Shown in pieces: positions 4,053 to 55,268 of a DNA stretch of 64,000 nucleotides (position 1 is the stretch's first letter; each line of letters starts with the position of its first letter). Position numbers and translations under genes: made by a program. A model generated the notes under the pieces. That model was not told the origin of the DNA, searched no databases, and saw only the letters and a list, made by a program, of their open reading frames with translations. The DNA is from Candidatus Moraniibacteriota bacterium. Lineage in GTDB: Bacteria; Patescibacteriota; Minisyncoccia; Moranbacterales; GWC2-37-73. The stretch spans positions 29,083-93,082 of the forward strand of contig DNVR01000008.1 in the NCBI GenBank assembly GCA_003507445.1, in the 5' to 3' direction.

Positions 4053-4898
4053 ATGATGAGAAATAAAAAAGAAAATATTACCATAATTATAATTATCGTA
4101 ATTTTAACCTTATCCGCAGGAGTTATCGGCTGGATGCTAGCGAAGAACTCGCAAGATGTTTCAAAATCTAAGATAGTTAATAATTCAAAACTAATAAGCA
4201 CAACAGAACAGTCTTCGGAGCCGACAAATAAAATTTCTGAATCGTTACCTCCTGTTGATGAAATCGCTATTAACGATTTTTCCATAGCTATTGTCGCAAA
4301 CAATGATCTGCACTGGTCTAGTCGCGCAAATGTCAAATCAGATACTTCAATTCAATTTCGCTGGACAACAACAGGTGCGGATAGTTGCAATATAAGTGGC
4401 GGAAATTTATTTAATTCGAATACAAATTTAGCAACAAACGAAACAGGAATTAAAAAAGTTGCAGATGATTTTTCGAACGGAATCTACACATTAAAATGTG
4501 TAAGAAAATTAGATAATAAAACAGCAGAGGCAACTCCTATAATACTCAATGTCACACCAGCTAAAAAGTTAGTCATGTGCATGAAAAAATGCGGAAATGG
4601 CGGAATACCCATTCAGCAGAATATGAATCGCTTCTCTGGTGAAACAGTCCAAAAAGTCCGAGCGTGTTTTGGAAATTTTGCGTTGGATTGTCCAACACAG
4701 GATGTTACCAAAAATGCCGAATGGCTAACTAGTAATAATTCGATAATTACTTGGTCAAAGGATTATACGGTCGATGGAGAGAAGATAGTGGATGATGTGT
4801 ATCCCAATAAAACCCTGAAATCAGTCGGTGCAGGCAATGCTGAAGCCAGTGTTACATATTCTGGTTATTCATATGTTGTGAGGGTTGATGTGAAGTAG
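4053..4898 (+). CDS. hypothetical secreted/membrane-anchored Cys-containing protein
   Basis: 281-aa ORF with N-terminal signal-anchor ITIIIIIVILTLSAGVIGWML. No recognised catalytic motif. Confidence 0.5.
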   Translation: MMRNKKENITIIIIIVILTLSAGVIGWMLAKNSQDVSKSKIVNNSKLISTTEQSSEPTNKISESLPPVDEIAINDFSIAIVANNDLHWSSRANVKSDTSIQFRWTTTGADSCNISGGNLFNSNTNLATNETGIKKVADDFSNGIYTLKCVRKLDNKTAEATPIILNVTPAKKLVMCMKKCGNGGIPIQQNMNRFSGETVQKVRACFGNFALDCPTQDVTKNAEWLTSNNSIITWSKDYTVDGEKIVDDVYPNKTLKSVGAGNAEASVTYSGYSYVVRVDVK

Positions 4899-5083
4899 AC
4901 ATATTAAAAATAATTACTAAAAACTCTTTATTTTTAGGAAAGAAAAACTTTAGTTTCATTGCTTGAACCCGGCATATGTGGCTCGAAAAATTGACACTAT
5001 TAAAAAGTTCCAAATCAAGCATCATATTTGACGAAAATGAGTTAATTGGATATAATTGGATGTAGTTAATATATCCAAAAACT

Positions 5084-6172
5084 ATGGCTAATATAAAGCA
5101 AAAAGATATTAATATTGCAGACAAATTTTCAAAAAGGCTTGATAATATACCTGCGGAAATAATTTCAAAAATCGCCAAGATTGATGAATTAAAAGGCAGC
5201 TGGGTTTCTGGCACTCAACTAAGCTCGCAAGCACTGGGTCGTCTCAAGCGGTCTGTTTTGATAACCTCGACTGGAGCATCAACTCGTATTGAGGGTGTGC
5301 AACTTTCTGATGAGGATATTGAAAAAGTGATGCGCGGTATAAATATTCAAAAATTTGCTGACCGCGATAAGCAAGAAGTCAAGGGTTATTACGAACTTTT
5401 GGAAAATGTCTTTAATTCTTGGGGGAGTTTGAAATTCAACGAAAGTTCAATAAAACATTTCCACAAGGAGTTATTGAAATATTCAGAAAAAGACCAGGGT
5501 CATTTGGGTGATTACAAATTTGGAGAAAATAAAGTCGTCGCATACGATCATGAAGGAAAAGAGGTTGGGATAATTTTCAATCCCACTTCGCCATACCTCA
5601 CGCCCAAAGAAATGATTGAGCTTATTGAATCAACCAATTTTTTGCTTGCTGAAAAAAAATACCATCCGTTGCTAGTAATTGCAAATTTCCTGGTTGAATT
5701 TTTGGCAATTCATCCTTTTAAAGATGGAAATGGAAGAGTTTCTAGAGTTTTGACGAATTTATTGTTGCTTCAAAATGGATATCTGTATATGCCGTATGTT
5801 TCACATGAAAAACTAGTGGAAGACAATAAAACAGATTATTATCTTGCACTTAGGAGAAGTCAAAAGACTTTTCATTCAAAAAACGAAGACATTTCTCCAT
5901 GGTTAGAATTTTTCTTTACAATTTTATTACGACAATCACAATTTGCGATTGAATTATTGTCAAAAGAGAATATTGAAAAATTACTATCAGAAAGACAACT
6001 TGCAGTTTGGAAATTTTTTCAACAAGTTGAAATTACTGGAACAGGCGAGATTGTTGCTGGAACAAATATTCCGCGGCCAACCGTCAAGCAATCACTTGAG
6101 GTATTGTTGAAGTTGAAAAAAATAGAGAGAATAGGCCAAGGTAGAAGTGTGAGATATAAAAAGGTTGCTTAA
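5084..6172 (+). CDS. fic: Fic/DOC family protein (putative AMPylator) with N-terminal inhibitory helix and C-terminal winged-helix-like region
   Basis: Canonical Fic motif HPFKDGNGRVSRVL (HxFx(D/E)GNGRxxR). Upstream STRIEG matches the (S/T)xxxE(G/N) inhibitory motif of class II Fic proteins. Confidence 0.85.
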   Translation: MANIKQKDINIADKFSKRLDNIPAEIISKIAKIDELKGSWVSGTQLSSQALGRLKRSVLITSTGASTRIEGVQLSDEDIEKVMRGINIQKFADRDKQEVKGYYELLENVFNSWGSLKFNESSIKHFHKELLKYSEKDQGHLGDYKFGENKVVAYDHEGKEVGIIFNPTSPYLTPKEMIELIESTNFLLAEKKYHPLLVIANFLVEFLAIHPFKDGNGRVSRVLTNLLLLQNGYLYMPYVSHEKLVEDNKTDYYLALRRSQKTFHSKNEDISPWLEFFFTILLRQSQFAIELLSKENIEKLLSERQLAVWKFFQQVEITGTGEIVAGTNIPRPTVKQSLEVLLKLKKIERIGQGRSVRYKKVA

Positions 6173-6416: not shown

Positions 6417-7337
6417 ATGTCTTGGATTTTTGTTGCAGTAAGCGCATATTTTTTGGGAGCCTTTGCGGTCCTGATGGACAAGTTTCTTTTGGGCTCCAAA
6501 AGAATTTCTTCTCCGCAAGTGTACACTTTTTACGTGGGAATTTTTGGATTGGGCGCATTTCTTTTTGCGCCGTTTGGTTTTGATGTTCCTTCTGCTTGGC
6601 AGATCACAATAAGTTTTATTTCGGGAGCAATTTATATTGGCGGAATTTTTGCGCTCAATCTTTCAATCAACAAAGCTGAAGCAAGCAGGGTAACACCTGT
6701 TGTTTTTTCGGTTGTGCCGATTGCGACATATTTGATATCCTTTGTTTTTAATGATGAAAAACTGACACTCATTCAGATTGGTGGAGTCGCATTGCTTATA
6801 ATCGGTGGACTGCTCATTTCTTTTGACTTGCCGCTTAAATTGAACAAGAGAAAATTTTTTGTTGGCTTTTATTTTTCTTGTTTGGCTGGAGTGCTTTTGG
6901 CAATTTCATATGTGATGTTTAAGATGGTTTATGTTGAGCAAACATTTTTAAATGGATTTATGTGGACCAGAGTTGGCGGTTTTGCGGCTGCACTTTTGCT
7001 TTTGATTGTTCCGACTTGGCGCAAGGCTATTTTTAAAAGTTTTTCTCATGCTAAAAAACCTTCAAAGGAACATATTGGCACGGGAGGAATATTCATTGCA
7101 AATAAGATCCTGGGCGGAACAAGTTCTATCTTGCTCAATAAGGCTTTTCAGTTGGGAAGTGTGACATTGGTCAATTCGATGGTATCGCTCCAATATGTGT
7201 TTGTGCTTATTCTCGTGGCAATAGCAGCCAAAAAACATCCGAAAGTTTTTGAAGAAAAGTTGTTGTTTTGGGATTGGGCTCAAAAAGTTGTTGCGATATT
7301 AATCATTGCAATAGGGATGGTTTTAATTTCAAGATAG
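6417..7337 (+). CDS. polytopic membrane protein, EamA/DMT-superfamily-like transporter
   Basis: 306 aa with ~10 hydrophobic helices in two halves. No ATP-binding motif. Confidence 0.45.
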   Translation: MSWIFVAVSAYFLGAFAVLMDKFLLGSKRISSPQVYTFYVGIFGLGAFLFAPFGFDVPSAWQITISFISGAIYIGGIFALNLSINKAEASRVTPVVFSVVPIATYLISFVFNDEKLTLIQIGGVALLIIGGLLISFDLPLKLNKRKFFVGFYFSCLAGVLLAISYVMFKMVYVEQTFLNGFMWTRVGGFAAALLLLIVPTWRKAIFKSFSHAKKPSKEHIGTGGIFIANKILGGTSSILLNKAFQLGSVTLVNSMVSLQYVFVLILVAIAAKKHPKVFEEKLLFWDWAQKVVAILIIAIGMVLISR

Positions 7338-12858: not shown

Positions 12859-13024
12859 TTTGTCTATGAGGTACGAGTAGCTACAAAATGAAGCACCCCG
12901 CACCAATTCTCTATTAAATTCTTAAATTATATAAATACTGAGCCGTAGGCGTTTCCGTGCATAAATCCCTCAACTAGTACCGGTAGTTTTTGGAATTTGG
13001 TGCGGGGGTAGGCCTCCTCTCTAA

Positions 13025-14040: not shown

Positions 14041-14452
14041 TGTATATATGGTGGAGTTGATGGGAATTGCACCCATGTCCAAAATTGACAATCCAAAATC
14101 CTCTACAAGTTTAGTTTATTTTTTCTCACCGAAGCGAGTGCGACTAATTAGAGTAGAGAATAAACAAAACCTCTAAATGCCGTTTTCAGAATTATTTCGC
14201 ATTTTGTGTCCAAAAAACCACAAAACACTATTCTCATGTTTGACACCGAGGTCTGCTTACGAGAAATCAGCAGTTCGATGGCTTCGAGCCTAAGCTAAAG
14301 CAGGTGAAAAACCAGCAAATGCTTGCGCAAATGTAGCTTTCGCCTTTGATATGAAGTTTGCACTTATATCTTCGCCACACTTTTTACGATACAGCAGCGG
14401 TGATCGACTTGCATATTTTGAAAAGTACAACCTGTCGAAACTAAACAACCCC
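14041..14452 (-). ncRNA. ssrA: tmRNA (ssrA)
   Basis: Minus-strand 5' GGGGTTGTTTAGTTTCGACAGG matches the tmRNA 5' consensus. 3' end reads ...GGACATGGGTGCAATTCCCATCAACTCCACCA with encoded CCA. Acceptor pairs 7/7 including the G3-U wobble. Adjacent to smpB. Confidence 0.75.
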
Positions 14453-14629
14453 CGGCCGCAACACTCTGTAAGGGTTGAGTGCGGGGAATGTCAATTTATT
14501 TTCGTGTGCGGAATTTCCAAATCCCAATTTCCAATTTCCAATAAAAATTTAAATTACAAAATGTCCAATAATAAACAATACCTTTGGCATTAAAAGTTGG
14601 AAATTTTGTTAGAAATTAGATATTGGTAA

Positions 14630-52144: not shown

Positions 52145-52561
52145 CTATGCCATTCCTGGCGACATTATGTAGGTTTGTTCTCGCAAACCTCCAACACGAG
52201 GAAGCACATAGCGTGGTTTTTCGGTTGTGCATTTAAAACAAAAAGGCGCTGTCGGCATTGCTTTTAAGCGAGCAATGGGAATGTCTTCCTTACATTTGCA
52301 ACATATCCCGTACGTCTCATTATCAAGACGTCGCAGTGCTGCAGTGCAAGCCGCTATCGTTTCTCTGCATCTCGGGTTATTTACTGCTTGAAGAGACCGC
52401 TCATTGTGATCTGGTCCCTCCGACTCTATGCCACTGTTGCCCTTATATGAAAAAACAGGTTCATCAGGGCAAACGTCACAAATTATACCCCTCGTTGCTT
52501 CTTCGAGCATTCTCATTATAACTTCTCGTGCAGACTGTAATTCCTCGTTGTTTAATGACAA
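52145..52561 (-). CDS. DksA/TraR-family C4 zinc-finger protein, TTG start
   Basis: C-x2-C-x17-C-x2-C zinc finger at the C-terminus with upstream coiled-coil-like region. AAGGAG-6nt-TTG start. The longer track ORF is an upstream extension. Confidence 0.6.
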   Translation of the reverse strand: MSLNNEELQSAREVIMRMLEEATRGIICDVCPDEPVFSYKGNSGIESEGPDHNERSLQAVNNPRCRETIAACTAALRRLDNETYGICCKCKEDIPIARLKAMPTAPFCFKCTTEKPRYVLPRVGGLREQTYIMSPGMA

Positions 52562-52778
52562 AGCGATTCTCCTTTTTAAAAAAAGATAAGATTTTTCCCC
52601 TTTAATAAAGCAAAAATACGAGCACTTACCACCAAAACATAATTTCATTGAAAAAGAACAACAATTAAGCACTAATCTATTATTATACTCCTTTTATCGA
52701 AAAATGTCAAGACTTTTAAATTCCTGACATTTTCCGACAATAATGCTGTGCCACGTGATGAGCGTAGCGAATTTTACG

Positions 52779-52854
52779 TGGTGCTCTCGGCAGGAATCGA
52801 ACCTGCGACCTTCTGGACCGCAACCAGACGCTCTATCCACTGAGCTACGAAAGC
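52779..52854 (-). tRNA. tRNA-Arg (anticodon read as GCG)
   Basis: Cloverleaf: acceptor GCTTTCG/CGAGAGC, D-arm GCTC-AGTGGATA-GAGC, anticodon stem TCTGG/CCAGA with loop TTGCGGT, T-arm GCAGG-TTCGATT-CCTGC, encoded CCA. Confidence 0.75.
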
Positions 52855-52863
52855 AAATTTTTG

Positions 52864-52895
52864 TACGGGGTCCACTGAGCTACAAGGACAACTTC
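52864..52895 (-). pseudogene. partial tRNA-like fragment (acceptor + D-arm only) adjacent to tRNA-Arg
   Basis: Minus strand reads GTCCTTGTAGCTCAGTGGACCCCGTAC. Shares TAGCTCAGTGGA with the neighbouring tRNA D-arm and then breaks off. Confidence 0.3.
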
Positions 52896-52992
52896 ACATA
52901 ACACGTATCATAGAACATGGAACAAAAAAAATCAATAGATTACGCACTTATTACATTTATGCTCTATGTTTTATGCTATATGCTATATGACC

Positions 52993-53700
52993 TTAGATAT
53001 GTAAAACACGTTCAATTGCATCAATAAGTCCGGGATCCTGTTTGATTTCTGGAATATTGCGCATCAAAATTTCTCGCATTTTCACTGGGTCTTCGTTGGC
53101 GATGGGGATGTGAACAAAGGGAAGCATAGAAGCCTTGGTATGAAGGCTGATAGTTTTGGTGTGATTTGGATCATAAAAAATCCAAAAGGAATGAATATTT
53201 TCATATAAATACATTTCCTTGTCAGCAGTCACACCTTTGGATGTTATCGAGAATGTGATCACGCGCGGATCTTTTTGCAAATAAATATAACCGACAATGC
53301 CAAGCAAAATGAAGGTAATTGCCATAATTGGACTGTTTGTAGCCAGCGCATATCCAATCATTGCAACAATAAAAAGCCCAAAAATAATATACCAACGGGC
53401 AGATTTTTCGTATACTTCAAATTCCGGAGCTTTCCACTGATGGAAAATTTCATCCAAATTGCTTTCTTGGTCGGAATCATTTTGCTGTCTTGTTGGCGCT
53501 TCTTCTGTCTGTCTGCGCGTAGCAAAATTCTGTGATTCCACTGGCGTGTTCGCCGAATTAAGCAGCTTGGAATTTCTAAGATCAAATGACATATTTCTTG
53601 CCCCGTGAAATTCTGCTAGCAGGCAGACATATTTCACTGGGGTGTATTTCTTTATTAAATAGTCCTGGCTCAATTCTAGCATATTTACCCACACACTCAA
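52993..53700 (-). CDS. membrane protein with two TM helices and C-terminal PH-like (YdbS/YdbT, DUF304-like) domain
   Basis: Hairpin-like TM pair WYIIFGLFIVAMIGYALATNSPIMAITFILLGIVGYIYL followed by a ~110-aa soluble domain. Confidence 0.35.
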   Translation of the reverse strand: MSVWVNMLELSQDYLIKKYTPVKYVCLLAEFHGARNMSFDLRNSKLLNSANTPVESQNFATRRQTEEAPTRQQNDSDQESNLDEIFHQWKAPEFEVYEKSARWYIIFGLFIVAMIGYALATNSPIMAITFILLGIVGYIYLQKDPRVITFSITSKGVTADKEMYLYENIHSFWIFYDPNHTKTISLHTKASMLPFVHIPIANEDPVKMREILMRNIPEIKQDPGLIDAIERVLHI

Positions 53701-53808
53701 AGTGTTGTATATTATAAATAGTAGCTATTATTTAATGTGGTTATGTTATTGAAACTATTGAGTGTGTGGGTTTACAAATATGTTTCTAGCTGTTACTATA
53801 TGCTTTAT

Positions 53809-53831
53809 GGAAGCGTGGCCGAGCGGTTCAA
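53809..53831 (+). pseudogene. duplicated 5' fragment of tRNA-Ser (23 nt)
   Basis: GGAAGCGTGGCCGAGCGGTTCAA matches the first 23 nt of the tRNA-Ser(TGA) gene at 53920 (1 mismatch), then diverges with no cloverleaf. Confidence 0.35.
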
Positions 53832-53919
53832 ATGCGATATAGGAGCATTTGAAGGTTTTCAAAAGAAAACCAGGGCAACCGTGAGGCATCAGTTTTTTAT
53901 GTTTTTGGAAAAACAATTT

Positions 53920-54004
53920 GGAAGCGTGGCCGAGCGGTTGAAGGCAACAGTCTTGAAAACTGTCATGGGGCGACCCATCAAGAGTTCGAATCTCTTCGCT
54001 TCCT
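53920..54004 (+). tRNA. tRNA-Ser (anticodon TGA), type II with long variable arm
   Basis: Acceptor GGAAGCG/CGCTTCC, anticodon stem ACAGT/ACTGT with loop CTTGAAA, variable arm CATGGGGCGACCCATC, T-arm AAGAG-TTCGAAT-CTCTT. Confidence 0.75.
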
Positions 54005-54046
54005 CAAGAATCTAATAAAAGAGATTTCTTAAAATTGAATAATTCC

Positions 54047-54133
54047 GGAGAGGTGGCTGAGAGGCCGAAAGCACCTCACTGCTAACGAGGCAGGGGGTAA
54101 AACCCCTCGAGGGTTCGAATCCCTCCTTCTCCG
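54047..54133 (+). tRNA. tRNA-Ser (anticodon GCT), type II
   Basis: Acceptor GGAGAGG/CTTCTCC, anticodon loop CTGCTAA, long variable arm CAGGGGGTAAAACCCCTCG, T-arm GAGGG-TTCGAAT-CCCTC. Confidence 0.7.
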
Positions 54134-54141
54134 CAAATTTT

Positions 54142-54169
54142 TTAAAGACCCATTTTTATGGGTCTTTAA
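54142..54169. terminator. perfect palindrome TTAAAGACCCATTTTTATGGGTCTTTAA (bidirectional terminator-like)
   Basis: 10-bp perfect stem flanked by A/T runs on both sides, immediately 3' of tRNA-Ser(GCT). Confidence 0.55.
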
Positions 54170-54350
54170 AAATATACAGAAGGAGGGATTCGAACGGGCA
54201 GAAGCTAAACAAATTTTCATTTAGCAAAATGAAAATGCAGTGTGCGTCGATGGATGCGACCATAGGAGCATTCAGCGCTGCCCAGGGCAAGGAGCGAGCG
54301 AGTGTCGACGAGCGAGCGACGCGGAAATCCCTCCCTTTCCGCATTAATAC

Positions 54351-54380
54351 AAAAAAGAGTTCATCGCGAACTCTTTTTTG
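54351..54380. terminator. hairpin AAGAGTTC-ATCGC-GAACTCTT flanked by A- and T-runs
   Basis: Perfect 8-bp stem with A6 upstream and T6 downstream. Confidence 0.5.
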
Positions 54381-54431
54381 TGTATTTTGCTGAGTAGAGT
54401 ATAATGAAGAAAGACAAATAAACAAAAACAT

Positions 54432-54734
54432 ATGAACGAATCTTCATTTGAAAATCCATTTTTGAAAAAAGAAACTTCTAATCGAGAGTGTTTTTTTCGG
54501 AAGATGTTTGAAAAATGTTCTTTGGAAGAAAATTGCGCAAAATGCAGTAGAAAAGGTTTGGAGTTTGACGGCGATGGTGCAGTTGCAACAATACGCAGAA
54601 AATCGGAAGCAGAAAAAGAATATTATTCAATAATACAAGCCAAGGGCGACGCTGATTTTGTTTTAGATGAAAGATTGATTACTGATGATTATTACGTTTT
54701 CTTTCAAAGAGATGAATTTAAAGAAGCAGCTTAA
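54432..54734 (+). CDS. hypothetical small protein (100 aa) with Cys cluster
   Basis: ORF with CFFRKMFEKCSLEENCAKC. No recognised family. Confidence 0.35.
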   Translation: MNESSFENPFLKKETSNRECFFRKMFEKCSLEENCAKCSRKGLEFDGDGAVATIRRKSEAEKEYYSIIQAKGDADFVLDERLITDDYYVFFQRDEFKEAA

Positions 54735-54758: not shown

Positions 54759-55268
54759 ATGACTGATGTAATTTTTGAATCAAGCCTCGAAATAAAAGCA
54801 GCCCAGGCAAGCAACATTCCGCAAATAGTTGGCGATTGGTGGAAGGAAATTTCGAAACAATCAAACTCTCCAGCAACTCCGGGAAAGTTATATGCTGTGG
54901 GAAATTATCTTGTTCAATTGGTAAAAAATTCGTTGAGCGATGGAAAAAGCAATGGGAAAGTGACCGCTATTTTTGACGAGGAAAAAATAAAAATTGTGAT
55001 TGATGATCTTGGCAGTGAAGAAAAAGATATTAATTTGAATGTGAAAGGAGAATATGGAATGAAAGAAGCGATTGAATATTTTGATGTTTTCAACATTGAA
55101 TCCAAGGGTAAGTTGTATGAAAAAGATAATCGCAATATGATTGAAGAAGTTGATGAGAGCGACGTGTATGCCGGCTCGAAAGTTACTATTATTAAATATC
55201 ATATAACACCAGTTGAAGAAGCGGAGGAAACTTGGCAATCCAGCAGAAATTTCGGACAAAGGATGTAA
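54759..55268 (+). CDS. hypothetical protein, possible GHKL/HATPase_c-like fold
   Basis: LVQLVKNSLSDG (N-box-like) and IVIDDLGSEE (G1-like DxGxG). Weak resemblance to small anti-sigma serine kinases. Confidence 0.3.
   Translation: MTDVIFESSLEIKAAQASNIPQIVGDWWKEISKQSNSPATPGKLYAVGNYLVQLVKNSLSDGKSNGKVTAIFDEEKIKIVIDDLGSEEKDINLNVKGEYGMKEAIEYFDVFNIESKGKLYEKDNRNMIEEVDESDVYAGSKVTIIKYHITPVEEAEETWQSSRNFGQRM

Follow-up and report, generated by a model that had tools for sequence, protein, structure and literature searches.

Partial tRNA copies around a tRNA cluster of Candidatus Moraniibacteriota: candidate remnants of serially replaced tRNA genes with conserved structured RNA inserts

Why are the three complete tRNA genes of a small cluster in a Candidatus Moraniibacteriota genome surrounded by partial tRNA copies and long palindromes? 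The cluster lies in a 64,000-nt stretch of contig DNVR01000008.1, which is referred to below, as a whole, as the window. The original prediction described the locus as a possible integration or recombination hotspot and explained the partial copies as attachment-site (att) scars of integrases. Our comparison with related loci points to another origin: the copies are probably the ends of older tRNA genes that were serially replaced by tRNA cassettes inserting into them, a reading to which we assign a probability of about 0.6. The most direct evidence of replacement comes from tRNA-Arg and from the 3' end of a structured copy downstream of tRNA-Ser(GCU), here called element B; for a second structured copy, element A, located upstream of tRNA-Ser(UGA), it is suggested by position and alignment.

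All evidence is comparative and in silico. The tRNA genes were called using ARAGORN and Rfam, repeats were detected with a repeat finder, protein-coding genes were classified by a Pfam scan, and RNA families were searched in Rfam. Related loci from metagenomes carry L-numbers (L001, L002, etc.). E-values from the covariance models are rough. By the outer tRNA we mean the older, displaced gene, and by the inner tRNA, the present complete one. The features of the cluster are as follows.

52779-52854, minus strand: tRNA-Arg(GCG), present (inner) gene, acceptor allele GCTTTCG/CGAGAGC, CCA encoded (ARAGORN, Rfam).
52855-52870, minus strand: linker CCCCGTACAAAAATTT, joining the old stub to the present tRNA-Arg.
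52871-52889, minus strand: 5' stub of the outer tRNA-Arg, GTCCTTGTAGCTCAGTGGA, comprising the acceptor 5' strand, the D-stem, and the D-loop as far as G19-A.
53771-53799, plus strand: σ70-type promoter of the tRNA-Ser operon (TTTACA, 17 nt, TACTAT; TG before the −10 box).
53809-53898, plus strand: element A, a tRNA-Ser(UGA) 5' half whose D-loop has a structured insert (alignment, covariance model).
53920-54005, plus strand: tRNA-Ser(UGA), present gene (ARAGORN, Rfam).
54047-54134, plus strand: tRNA-Ser(GCU), present gene, acceptor allele GGAGAGG/CTTCTCC (ARAGORN, Rfam).
54139-54172, no strand: perfect palindrome with 15-bp arms, the tip of a long hairpin in which the 5' strand of element B pairs with the 3' half of tRNA-Ser(GCU).
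54178-54343, plus strand: element B, an older tRNA-Ser(GCU) reduced to its T-arm and the 3' strand of its acceptor, with a structured replacement of the T-loop (homologues, covariation).
54347-54383, plus strand: intrinsic terminator closing the operon, a 16-bp stem followed by a T-run (terminator scan, repeat finder).

The partial copies and palindromes reported originally were all recovered by the repeat finder, above chance, and positions 52701-54440 are identical base for base in five independent assemblies of the same groundwater organism. ARAGORN and Rfam concordantly confirmed exactly three tRNA genes in the cluster, Arg(GCG), Ser(UGA) and Ser(GCU), and neither program called a tRNA in element A, element B or the Arg stub. 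The fragment beside tRNA-Arg (52871-52894) matches the D-arm region of this tRNA in 19 of 24 positions with a 13-nt exact core. The 5' copy of tRNA-Ser(UGA) agrees in 23 of 24 nt, 53809-53828 being exactly the first 20 nt of the gene. The 3' end of tRNA-Ser(GCU) recurs twice, as a perfect inversion of the 18-mer GTTCGAATCCCTCCTTCT (54113-54130) at 54178-54195, beyond the palindrome (arms 54139-54153 and 54158-54172), and as a direct copy at 54326-54343 that matches 54118-54135 in 16 of 18 positions. The likeness of the fragments to tRNAs exceeds chance, since neither the 20-mer nor the 18-mer found a second match in dinucleotide shuffles (0/100 each).

The displaced gene is seen most clearly at tRNA-Arg. 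The stub agrees in 19 of 19 positions with the 5' end of the tRNA-Arg that is functional in L002, and likewise with that of other relatives; its acceptor strand, GTCCTTG, represents the commonest tRNA-Arg allele among the relatives (17 loci). The GTCCTTG stub is joined by the linker CCCCGTAC to a present gene of the GCTTTCG allele, which is rare: among 82 tRNA-Arg(GCG) genes in related loci it occurs in the window and L089 only. The linker is the left arm of a CCCCGYAY...RTGCGGGG terminal stem whose right arm is missing in the window. The same junction of stub and linker (CAGTGGA/CCCCR) was found in eight loci, and six of these also have the right junction (GCGGGG/CAWGTGCC) followed by the rest of the outer tRNA. 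In L089 and L122 the stub, linker and inner gene are arranged as in the window, L089 having the same inner allele as well. A resident GTCCTTG tRNA-Arg would thus have been broken in its D-loop by a cassette with CCCCGYAY...RTGCGGGG arms carrying a complete tRNA-Arg of another allele, of which event the window would retain only the 19-nt 5' stub and the left arm.

The window tRNA-Arg encodes its 3' CCA, unlike the two tRNA-Ser genes and most tRNA genes of the related loci, which fits a foreign origin of the tRNA-Arg cassette. A phage origin of the cassette was considered and found no support, as no exact match to the 5' 31-mer of tRNA-Arg or to the junction of stub and linker turned up in the viral contigs scanned.

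Complete nested genes of this kind are present in the relatives. A complete tRNA-Arg or tRNA-Ser lies inside the D-, anticodon or T-loop of another tRNA of the same isoacceptor type and a different allele in L127, L089, L122, L095, L112, L128 and L153/L154. The outer tRNA-Arg of L127 has received three armed inserts, one in each of the D-, anticodon and T-loops, and one of them contains an inner tRNA; in L112, L128, L153 and others, a tRNA-Ser lies in the anticodon loop of another tRNA-Ser. When the insert is removed in silico, ARAGORN calls tRNA-Arg(GCG) in L095 and tRNA-Ser(UGA) in L153, and the outer tRNA of L127 is called only after manual repair of the D-stem 3' segment. Several outer copies have degenerate T-loops (these in the Arg cases) or D-stems, and the copies form a graded series from intact-looking (L112, L153) to decayed (L087, where the decayed outer half directly follows the promoter). 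A search of a limited library of literature yielded no description of nested bacterial tRNA genes or of the modules of elements A and B.

The arms CCCCGCAC/GTGCGGGG bound the tRNA-carrying inserts in the relatives and form the linker beside the Arg stub. They also bound an element of approximately 120 bp at 12890-13012 of the window, between the minus-strand genes rpmI and rplT, where the inverted arms read CCCCGCACCAAATTC ... GAATTGGTGCGGGG. Elements with these arms look like a dispersed palindromic family resembling miniature inverted-repeat transposable elements.

At the tRNA-Ser genes the displaced ends contain additional RNA structure. Element A starts a few bases after the promoter, whose sequence is kept in L001, L002, L003 and L005; in L003, which has no element A, tRNA-Ser(UGA) starts at that very point, at the same distance from the promoter. 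Positions 1-22 of the tRNA correspond to 53809-53830 (21 of 22 identical to the inner tRNA-Ser(UGA)), a 53-nt insert occupies 53831-53883, and positions 23-36 correspond to 53884-53897. This last segment, AGGCATCAGTTTTT, aligns with tRNA-Ser(UGA) positions 23-36, AGGCAACAGTCTTG, that is, with the 3' strand of the D-stem, the 5' strand of the anticodon stem and the first part of the loop, so that the similarity extends beyond the copy noticed originally. An alignment to the cognate tRNA with a single 53-nt gap was obtained for the window, L001, L004, L084 and L139. Element A is therefore best described as a 5' tRNA-Ser half that was broken off in the anticodon loop and has an insert in the D-loop. 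Elements of the UGA type and of the GCU type each bear the 5' end of their own neighboring tRNA.

The insert of element A forms a three-way junction. In helix P1 (53818-53826/53879-53887) the 5' segment of the D-arm is paired with the insert's 3' end, H1 (53827-53853) has 9 bp and a purine-rich loop, and H2 (53854-53871) has 7 bp and an AAAA loop; the z-score of the fold is −4.9. A covariance model (R1) finds element A once in the window and gives 18 strong matches in 725 kb of related loci, all of them beside tRNA-Ser only. In 14 distinct copies 90.6% of the cells are paired and 11 pairs have changed on both sides, a level reached by 0 of 500 shuffles; in H1 99% are paired and seven of the nine pairs covary. 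The T-run at 53893-53898 does not vary among the 14 distinct copies. There are many G-U pairs and few A-C mismatches, both here and in the compact form of element B described below, which indicates that the sense-strand RNA is the selected form. We considered H1 as a protein-binding inverted repeat or a DNA cruciform and rejected both, given that its arms covary freely and that G-U pairs greatly outnumber A-C mismatches. Element A is present in about a dozen distinct loci of approximately 60 with tRNA-Ser; it occupies the same position in L001, L004 and L005, and occurs in tandem in L086 and L099.

At its end, element B repeats the 3' strand of the T-stem, the 3' strand of the acceptor and the discriminator. 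Its 3' end, AATCCCTCCCTTTCCGC, coincides with the 3' end of a functional tRNA-Ser(GCU) of the GGAAAGG allele in L127 and L133, and CCCTTTCC, at the 3' end of B, equals that of the same two loci; L038 also has the GGAAAGG allele, but with a CCTC end. With this exact match to a functional allele, the two positions at which the direct repeat differs are not due to decay. The Arg stub, like the 3' end of B, is of an allele that its inner gene lacks and that is functional elsewhere, which supports allele replacement.

The place of the T-loop in element B is taken by a structured RNA of approximately 135 nt (54191-54325). The 5' end of element B is the exact complement of the 3' half of the tRNA T-arm and pairs with the 3' end of the element (P1', 54178-54190/54326-54338). 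Helix P2 (54196-54201/54278-54283, GGGCAG/CTGCCC) encloses a hairpin homologous to H1 of element A (54252-54273), followed by a variable GAGCG-rich hairpin region at about 54290-54321 and a CCGCA tail. Elements A and B share the 11-mer ATAGGAGCATT and the 9-mer CCAGGGCAA, arranged in the same order, and neither is found elsewhere in the window. Homologues of this extended B are located at the same position in L001, L002, L003 and L010; 93.4% of cells are paired and five pairs covary in these four fairly close sequences. The 93-nt hairpin stretch that contains the palindrome folds with −51.3 kcal/mol (z = −9.1). The terminator scan made no call at the palindrome itself (54139-54172), whose U-tract is poor, and the relatives have a different hairpin in its place; the only strong terminator is adjoined by element B on its 5' side.

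A compact form of B, about 103 nt long, was found in seven loci, 3' of tRNA-Ser(UGA) in L004, L008 (and its duplicate L101), L010, L086 and L097, and 3' of tRNA-Ser(GCU) in L095. Its model aligns to the genuine T-arms of both tRNA-Ser genes of the window with the 78-nt core deleted, which identifies compact B as a T-arm with an insert. The fold includes a covarying helix P3, and the models of compact B and of A have matches only beside tRNA-Ser in the related loci. The shared architecture and the hairpin H1 suggest that compact B is related to the extended B of the window.

A further conserved element of about 167-178 nt follows tRNA-Arg in L001 (approximately 7164-7330), L002, L003, L004 and L008, and tRNA-Ser in L013. 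Its parts are a 5' strand like that of an acceptor, one hairpin, and a T-arm whose halves are separated by a core with two AT-rich hairpins; a copy of the tRNA 3' end closes it. Compact B has the CAGAC...AGTCG skeleton in common with it. The window, in which the tRNA-Arg region was replaced, lacks this element.

Between genomes the insert of element A is 60–98% identical and the core of compact B 77–96%, whereas four-fold degenerate sites of the membrane-protein gene approximately 200 bp away are only 13–46% identical, that is, saturated. Such slow change, together with the compensatory substitutions, indicates selection on RNA structure, which could act for the benefit of the cell or of a selfish element. 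The tRNA-Ser fragments are not merely eroding scars. No known family accounts for them: at the gathering score Rfam matched only tRNAs and a transfer-messenger RNA (tmRNA) in the whole window and only tRNAs in ten related loci, and at E-values up to 10 the region 52500-54500 gave nothing credible, the leftovers being low-scoring miRNA-like matches to hairpins.

The surrounding gene order is stable. RecG of the window, recognized by homology and not in the Pfam scan, places it in Candidatus Moranbacteria (Parcubacteria, Patescibacteria), being 87–89% identical in amino acid sequence to that of three published metagenome-assembled genomes, and the order recG, dksA-like gene, tRNA-Arg, gene of a 199-aa membrane protein, two tRNA-Ser genes is conserved across the group. 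Open reading frame (ORF) 169 (54759-55268) is 60–92% identical in L001, L005, L008, L010 and L038, where it keeps its side of the tRNA cluster; the MFS transporter gene beyond the cluster is also kept (71–96% identity in relatives). With these conserved flanks the segment 54134-55268 is no island, and ORF169 is not cargo of one. Public assemblies annotate ORF100 (54432-54734) as a gene. It has neither a Pfam match nor, even in L001, a tblastn match at 1e-4, and its likeness to L001 is confined to the first 12 or so residues; it is either a fast-evolving gene or not a real one.

Between these flanks the locus is a hotspot of rearrangement. The relatives have different tRNA alleles there, and within or beside their clusters lie genes of LAGLIDADG endonucleases (L002, 5465-6166; L038, approximately 4616-5690) and of small GIY-YIG endonucleases (L003, 3531-3770; L005, 5474-5713 and 3637-3912; L011, 21-254; L038), all identified by Pfam. 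By the same scan, a gene with a resolvase domain (serine recombinase family) is situated beside the cluster in L004 (1-394). In L005, L010 and L038, lexA lies between the flanks. In L004, L008 and L010 both tRNA-Ser genes are on the other strand while their order relative to the flanking genes is unchanged, so no simple inversion of the pair has occurred; the operon there runs GCU, UGA, compact B toward the membrane-protein gene. A decayed 5' stub of tRNA-Ser, GAGCGGTTGAA, was seen in L002 between the promoter and the LAGLIDADG gene. The earlier interpretation is thus partly supported: the fragments do derive from tRNAs and the locus does vary between conserved flanks, but the att-scar explanation of the repeats did not hold, for the reasons given below.

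Under serial replacement, the tRNA-Ser region would have the following history. Element A would be the 5' half (positions 1-36) of a tRNA-Ser(UGA) broken in the anticodon loop, and element B what is left of a tRNA-Ser(GCU) of another allele, namely its T-arm and the 3' strand of its acceptor. The incoming cassettes would be promoter-less and read from the promoter of the resident gene. The promoter and terminator signals suggest a transcription unit running from the promoter (53771-53799) to the terminator (54347-54383), with the probable order A, tRNA-Ser(UGA), tRNA-Ser(GCU), hairpin, B, terminator. RNase P and 3' processing would free the inner tRNAs, leaving A as a leader and B as a trailer, while selection at the RNA level would keep the folded inserts and the P1 and P1' strands. 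When the 585-nt transcript is folded to minimum energy, its flanks are in competition with the cloverleaves: the 3' strand of A P1 pairs with the D-arm of the inner tRNA, the 5' strand of B and the 3' half of tRNA-Ser(GCU) form an interrupted hairpin (18 bp plus the 15-bp tip), and the 5' acceptor strand of A pairs with the 3' strand of B in 6 of 7 positions by hand count (GGAAGCG vs CCTTTCC). Hence our proposal that P1, P1' and the inserts sequester tRNA-like strands that would otherwise mispair with the functional tRNAs, which appears the most plausible reason for their retention; roles in processing, attenuation at the invariant T-run, protein binding or spread of the cassette are alternatives.

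The endonuclease genes in the same cluster of the relatives also count in favor of serial replacement. Several observations weigh against it. The close agreement of the first 22 nt of A with the inner tRNA would also be expected from a local partial duplication, and repeated loss would explain the patchy distribution of A as readily as repeated gain. No locus contains a single outer tRNA-Ser having a matching A, anticodon 3' strand, variable arm and B, and A and B could be of separate origin. The compact-B model misses the extended B of the window even with filters off. A simple relic would not remain so conserved, the insulating role suggested above being a proposal. Finally, the window has no mobility gene, and serial replacement as formulated names no route by which the cassettes insert.

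The observations can be taken further, to a type of bacterial mobile cassette that has not been described: a complete promoter-less tRNA gene that enters the D-, anticodon or T-loop of a gene of the same isoacceptor type, relies on the resident promoter and ordinary tRNA processing, and includes the A and B modules (H1/H2, P2/P3) as its functional RNAs, which could be intron-like, guides of processing or a two-piece tRNA-like RNA. We consider this extension possible, though doubtful. If serial replacement is true, these reduced genomes would renew their tRNA genes by whole-gene cassettes that enter the resident gene and use its promoter, in a manner different from integrase islands and self-splicing introns. 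Serial replacement would also explain the stray tRNA halves that confuse the annotation of Patescibacteria. The locus adds at least two structured RNA motifs without an Rfam family, A and B (compact and extended), both supported by covariation, along with the related element after tRNA-Arg, and it provides a natural experiment on how cells tolerate tRNA-like fragments co-transcribed with essential tRNAs.

How do other explanations compare? Phages and genomic islands that target tRNA genes leave tRNA fragments as attL and attR repeats, and here a tRNA-targeting element might have come and later been lost. The arrangement at B fits this, with an intact tRNA, approximately 190 bp, and a direct copy of the tRNA 3' end, the displaced copy belonging to another allele as expected for attR; the resolvase-domain gene of L004 may be added. 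This att-like topology applies to B only. The other two fragments are 5' ends, which classical integration does not leave, and the seven ORFs scanned between 52145 and 57763 comprise a dksA/traR zinc finger, an MFS and a CYTH protein and four ORFs without a family, with no integrase family among them. An empty site was not seen: B is present in L001, L002 and L003, and A in L001, L004 and L005, at the same positions, under structural selection and with compensatory changes. The acceptor stem of the inner tRNA-Ser(GCU) is self-consistent, which implies that the whole gene was replaced and not its 3' end alone. Origin by integration is very unlikely and already largely refuted by the conserved orthologous copies; fragments at fixed positions in relatives, which the original prediction itself named as speaking against it, are found for A and B. 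As for chance similarity or an assembly artefact, the shortness of single matches is the only point in its favor; the shuffles, the five identical assemblies and the homologues in many genomes have already refuted it, and its probability is negligible.

Local tandem or partial duplication of tRNAs by slippage or unequal crossing-over, followed by decay and without any cassette, would account for the identity of the first 20 nt of A to the adjoining tRNA, and the tandem copies of A in L086 and L099 demonstrate that unequal crossing-over between repeats does occur. We nevertheless find it quite unlikely. The Arg stub and the B 3' end differ in allele from their neighbors and match other lineages, and in neither case are the outer and inner copy nearest to one another; the nested genes have defined inverted-repeat junctions in eight loci, and the D-loop and T-loop inserts are not derived from tRNA. 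Somewhat less improbable, though still unlikely, is that A and B belong to a functional RNA of independent standing, be it a two-piece tRNA-like molecule, a decoy or regulator binding a protein that recognizes tRNA-Ser, e.g., SerRS, or an attenuator acting through the T-run. The strong purifying selection with covariation, the invariance of the T-run, the pairing of the A 5' and B 3' strands in the transcript fold, and the D-arm-like and long-arm-like features kept in A agree with this. In contrast, complementarity of the A and B acceptor strands is not kept up where the two elements diverge from the inner tRNA (4/7 in L001 and 5/7 in L097, both hand counts), the acceptor strand of A is degenerate in L005 (GAGGCAT) with its insert intact, and many relatives have only A or only B. 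A two-piece tRNA-like RNA is not favored. The same counts, and the different isoacceptors of A and B in the window, led us to reject the two elements as halves of one split tRNA. A group I intron was rejected based on size, the lack of an Rfam match to the RF00028 core, and the exons of the window, which do not rejoin, A containing only positions 1-36 of Ser(UGA) and B only the T-arm and 3' strand of Ser(GCU). Hammerhead and other ribozymes had no Rfam match, and by inspection the junctions are unlike the hammerhead core.

Serial replacement may be compared with several known systems. As with att repeats, a partial copy adjoins an intact tRNA, the displaced copy may be an older allele, and the locus is variable; here, however, no integrase was found in the scanned ORFs, what was inserted is an entire tRNA gene for the same isoacceptor, breaks occur in the D-, anticodon and T-loops, remnants of both 5' and 3' ends are present, and the RNA structure is conserved across species. 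Leader and trailer RNAs of tRNA operons (external transcribed spacers) are processed off, and A and B, located between the promoter and the terminator, take the places of a 5' leader and a 3' trailer; they differ from ordinary spacers in consisting of tRNA halves with structured inserts and in being conserved well above them. Partial tRNA genes have been treated previously (bioRxiv 10.1101/2022.07.05.498093). Split, tri-split and multi-intron tRNAs and mobile bulge-helix-bulge introns at non-canonical positions are described for archaea (PMC10714607, citing Fujishima et al. 2009, 2010). They share with our case the interruption of D-, anticodon and T-loops, complementary flanks and mobile-looking inserts. 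The outer exons rebuild a cloverleaf in silico in L153 (Ser) and L095 (Arg, with a degenerate T-loop), which is not possible for the fragments of the window. The differences are the bacterial host (Patescibacteria), the intervening DNA, which is a complete tRNA gene, and the decay of the outer copies, whose degenerate T-loops and D-stems make them look dead and not spliced.

Group I introns located within tRNA genes occur in the same phylum, insert into the anticodon loop, confuse annotation and are sometimes associated with homing endonucleases, whereas the inserts considered here are 50-170 nt long and have no Rfam match to group I or any other non-tRNA family. SegB of phage T4 is a free-standing homing endonuclease encoded in a tRNA gene cluster (PMC2330249). 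The GIY-YIG and LAGLIDADG genes between the same tRNA genes in the relatives resemble this system, and so would a preferential replacement of one tRNA-region allele by another; the window has no endonuclease gene.

Some minor features lie elsewhere in the window or beside the cluster. The tmRNA gene (14049-14452, minus strand) is a standard one-piece gene scoring 130 bits in Rfam; a single CCCCGCACTCAACCC half-site, for which no partner arm was found, is located at 14479-14493, between the putative −35 box and the 5' end of the tmRNA. A 23-nt inverted repeat at 52694-52740 overlaps the perfect TTGACA-17-TATAAT promoter of the dksA-like gene, where the motif TTGTCGGAAAATGTCAGGAATTTAAA is conserved in L001 and L002. 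Between the start of the membrane-protein gene and the tRNA-Ser promoter, a 31-nt imperfect inverted repeat (ACCCACACACTCAA ... TTGAGTGTGTGGGT, 53687-53771) is conserved in L001 and may be an operator or an element of a divergent promoter.

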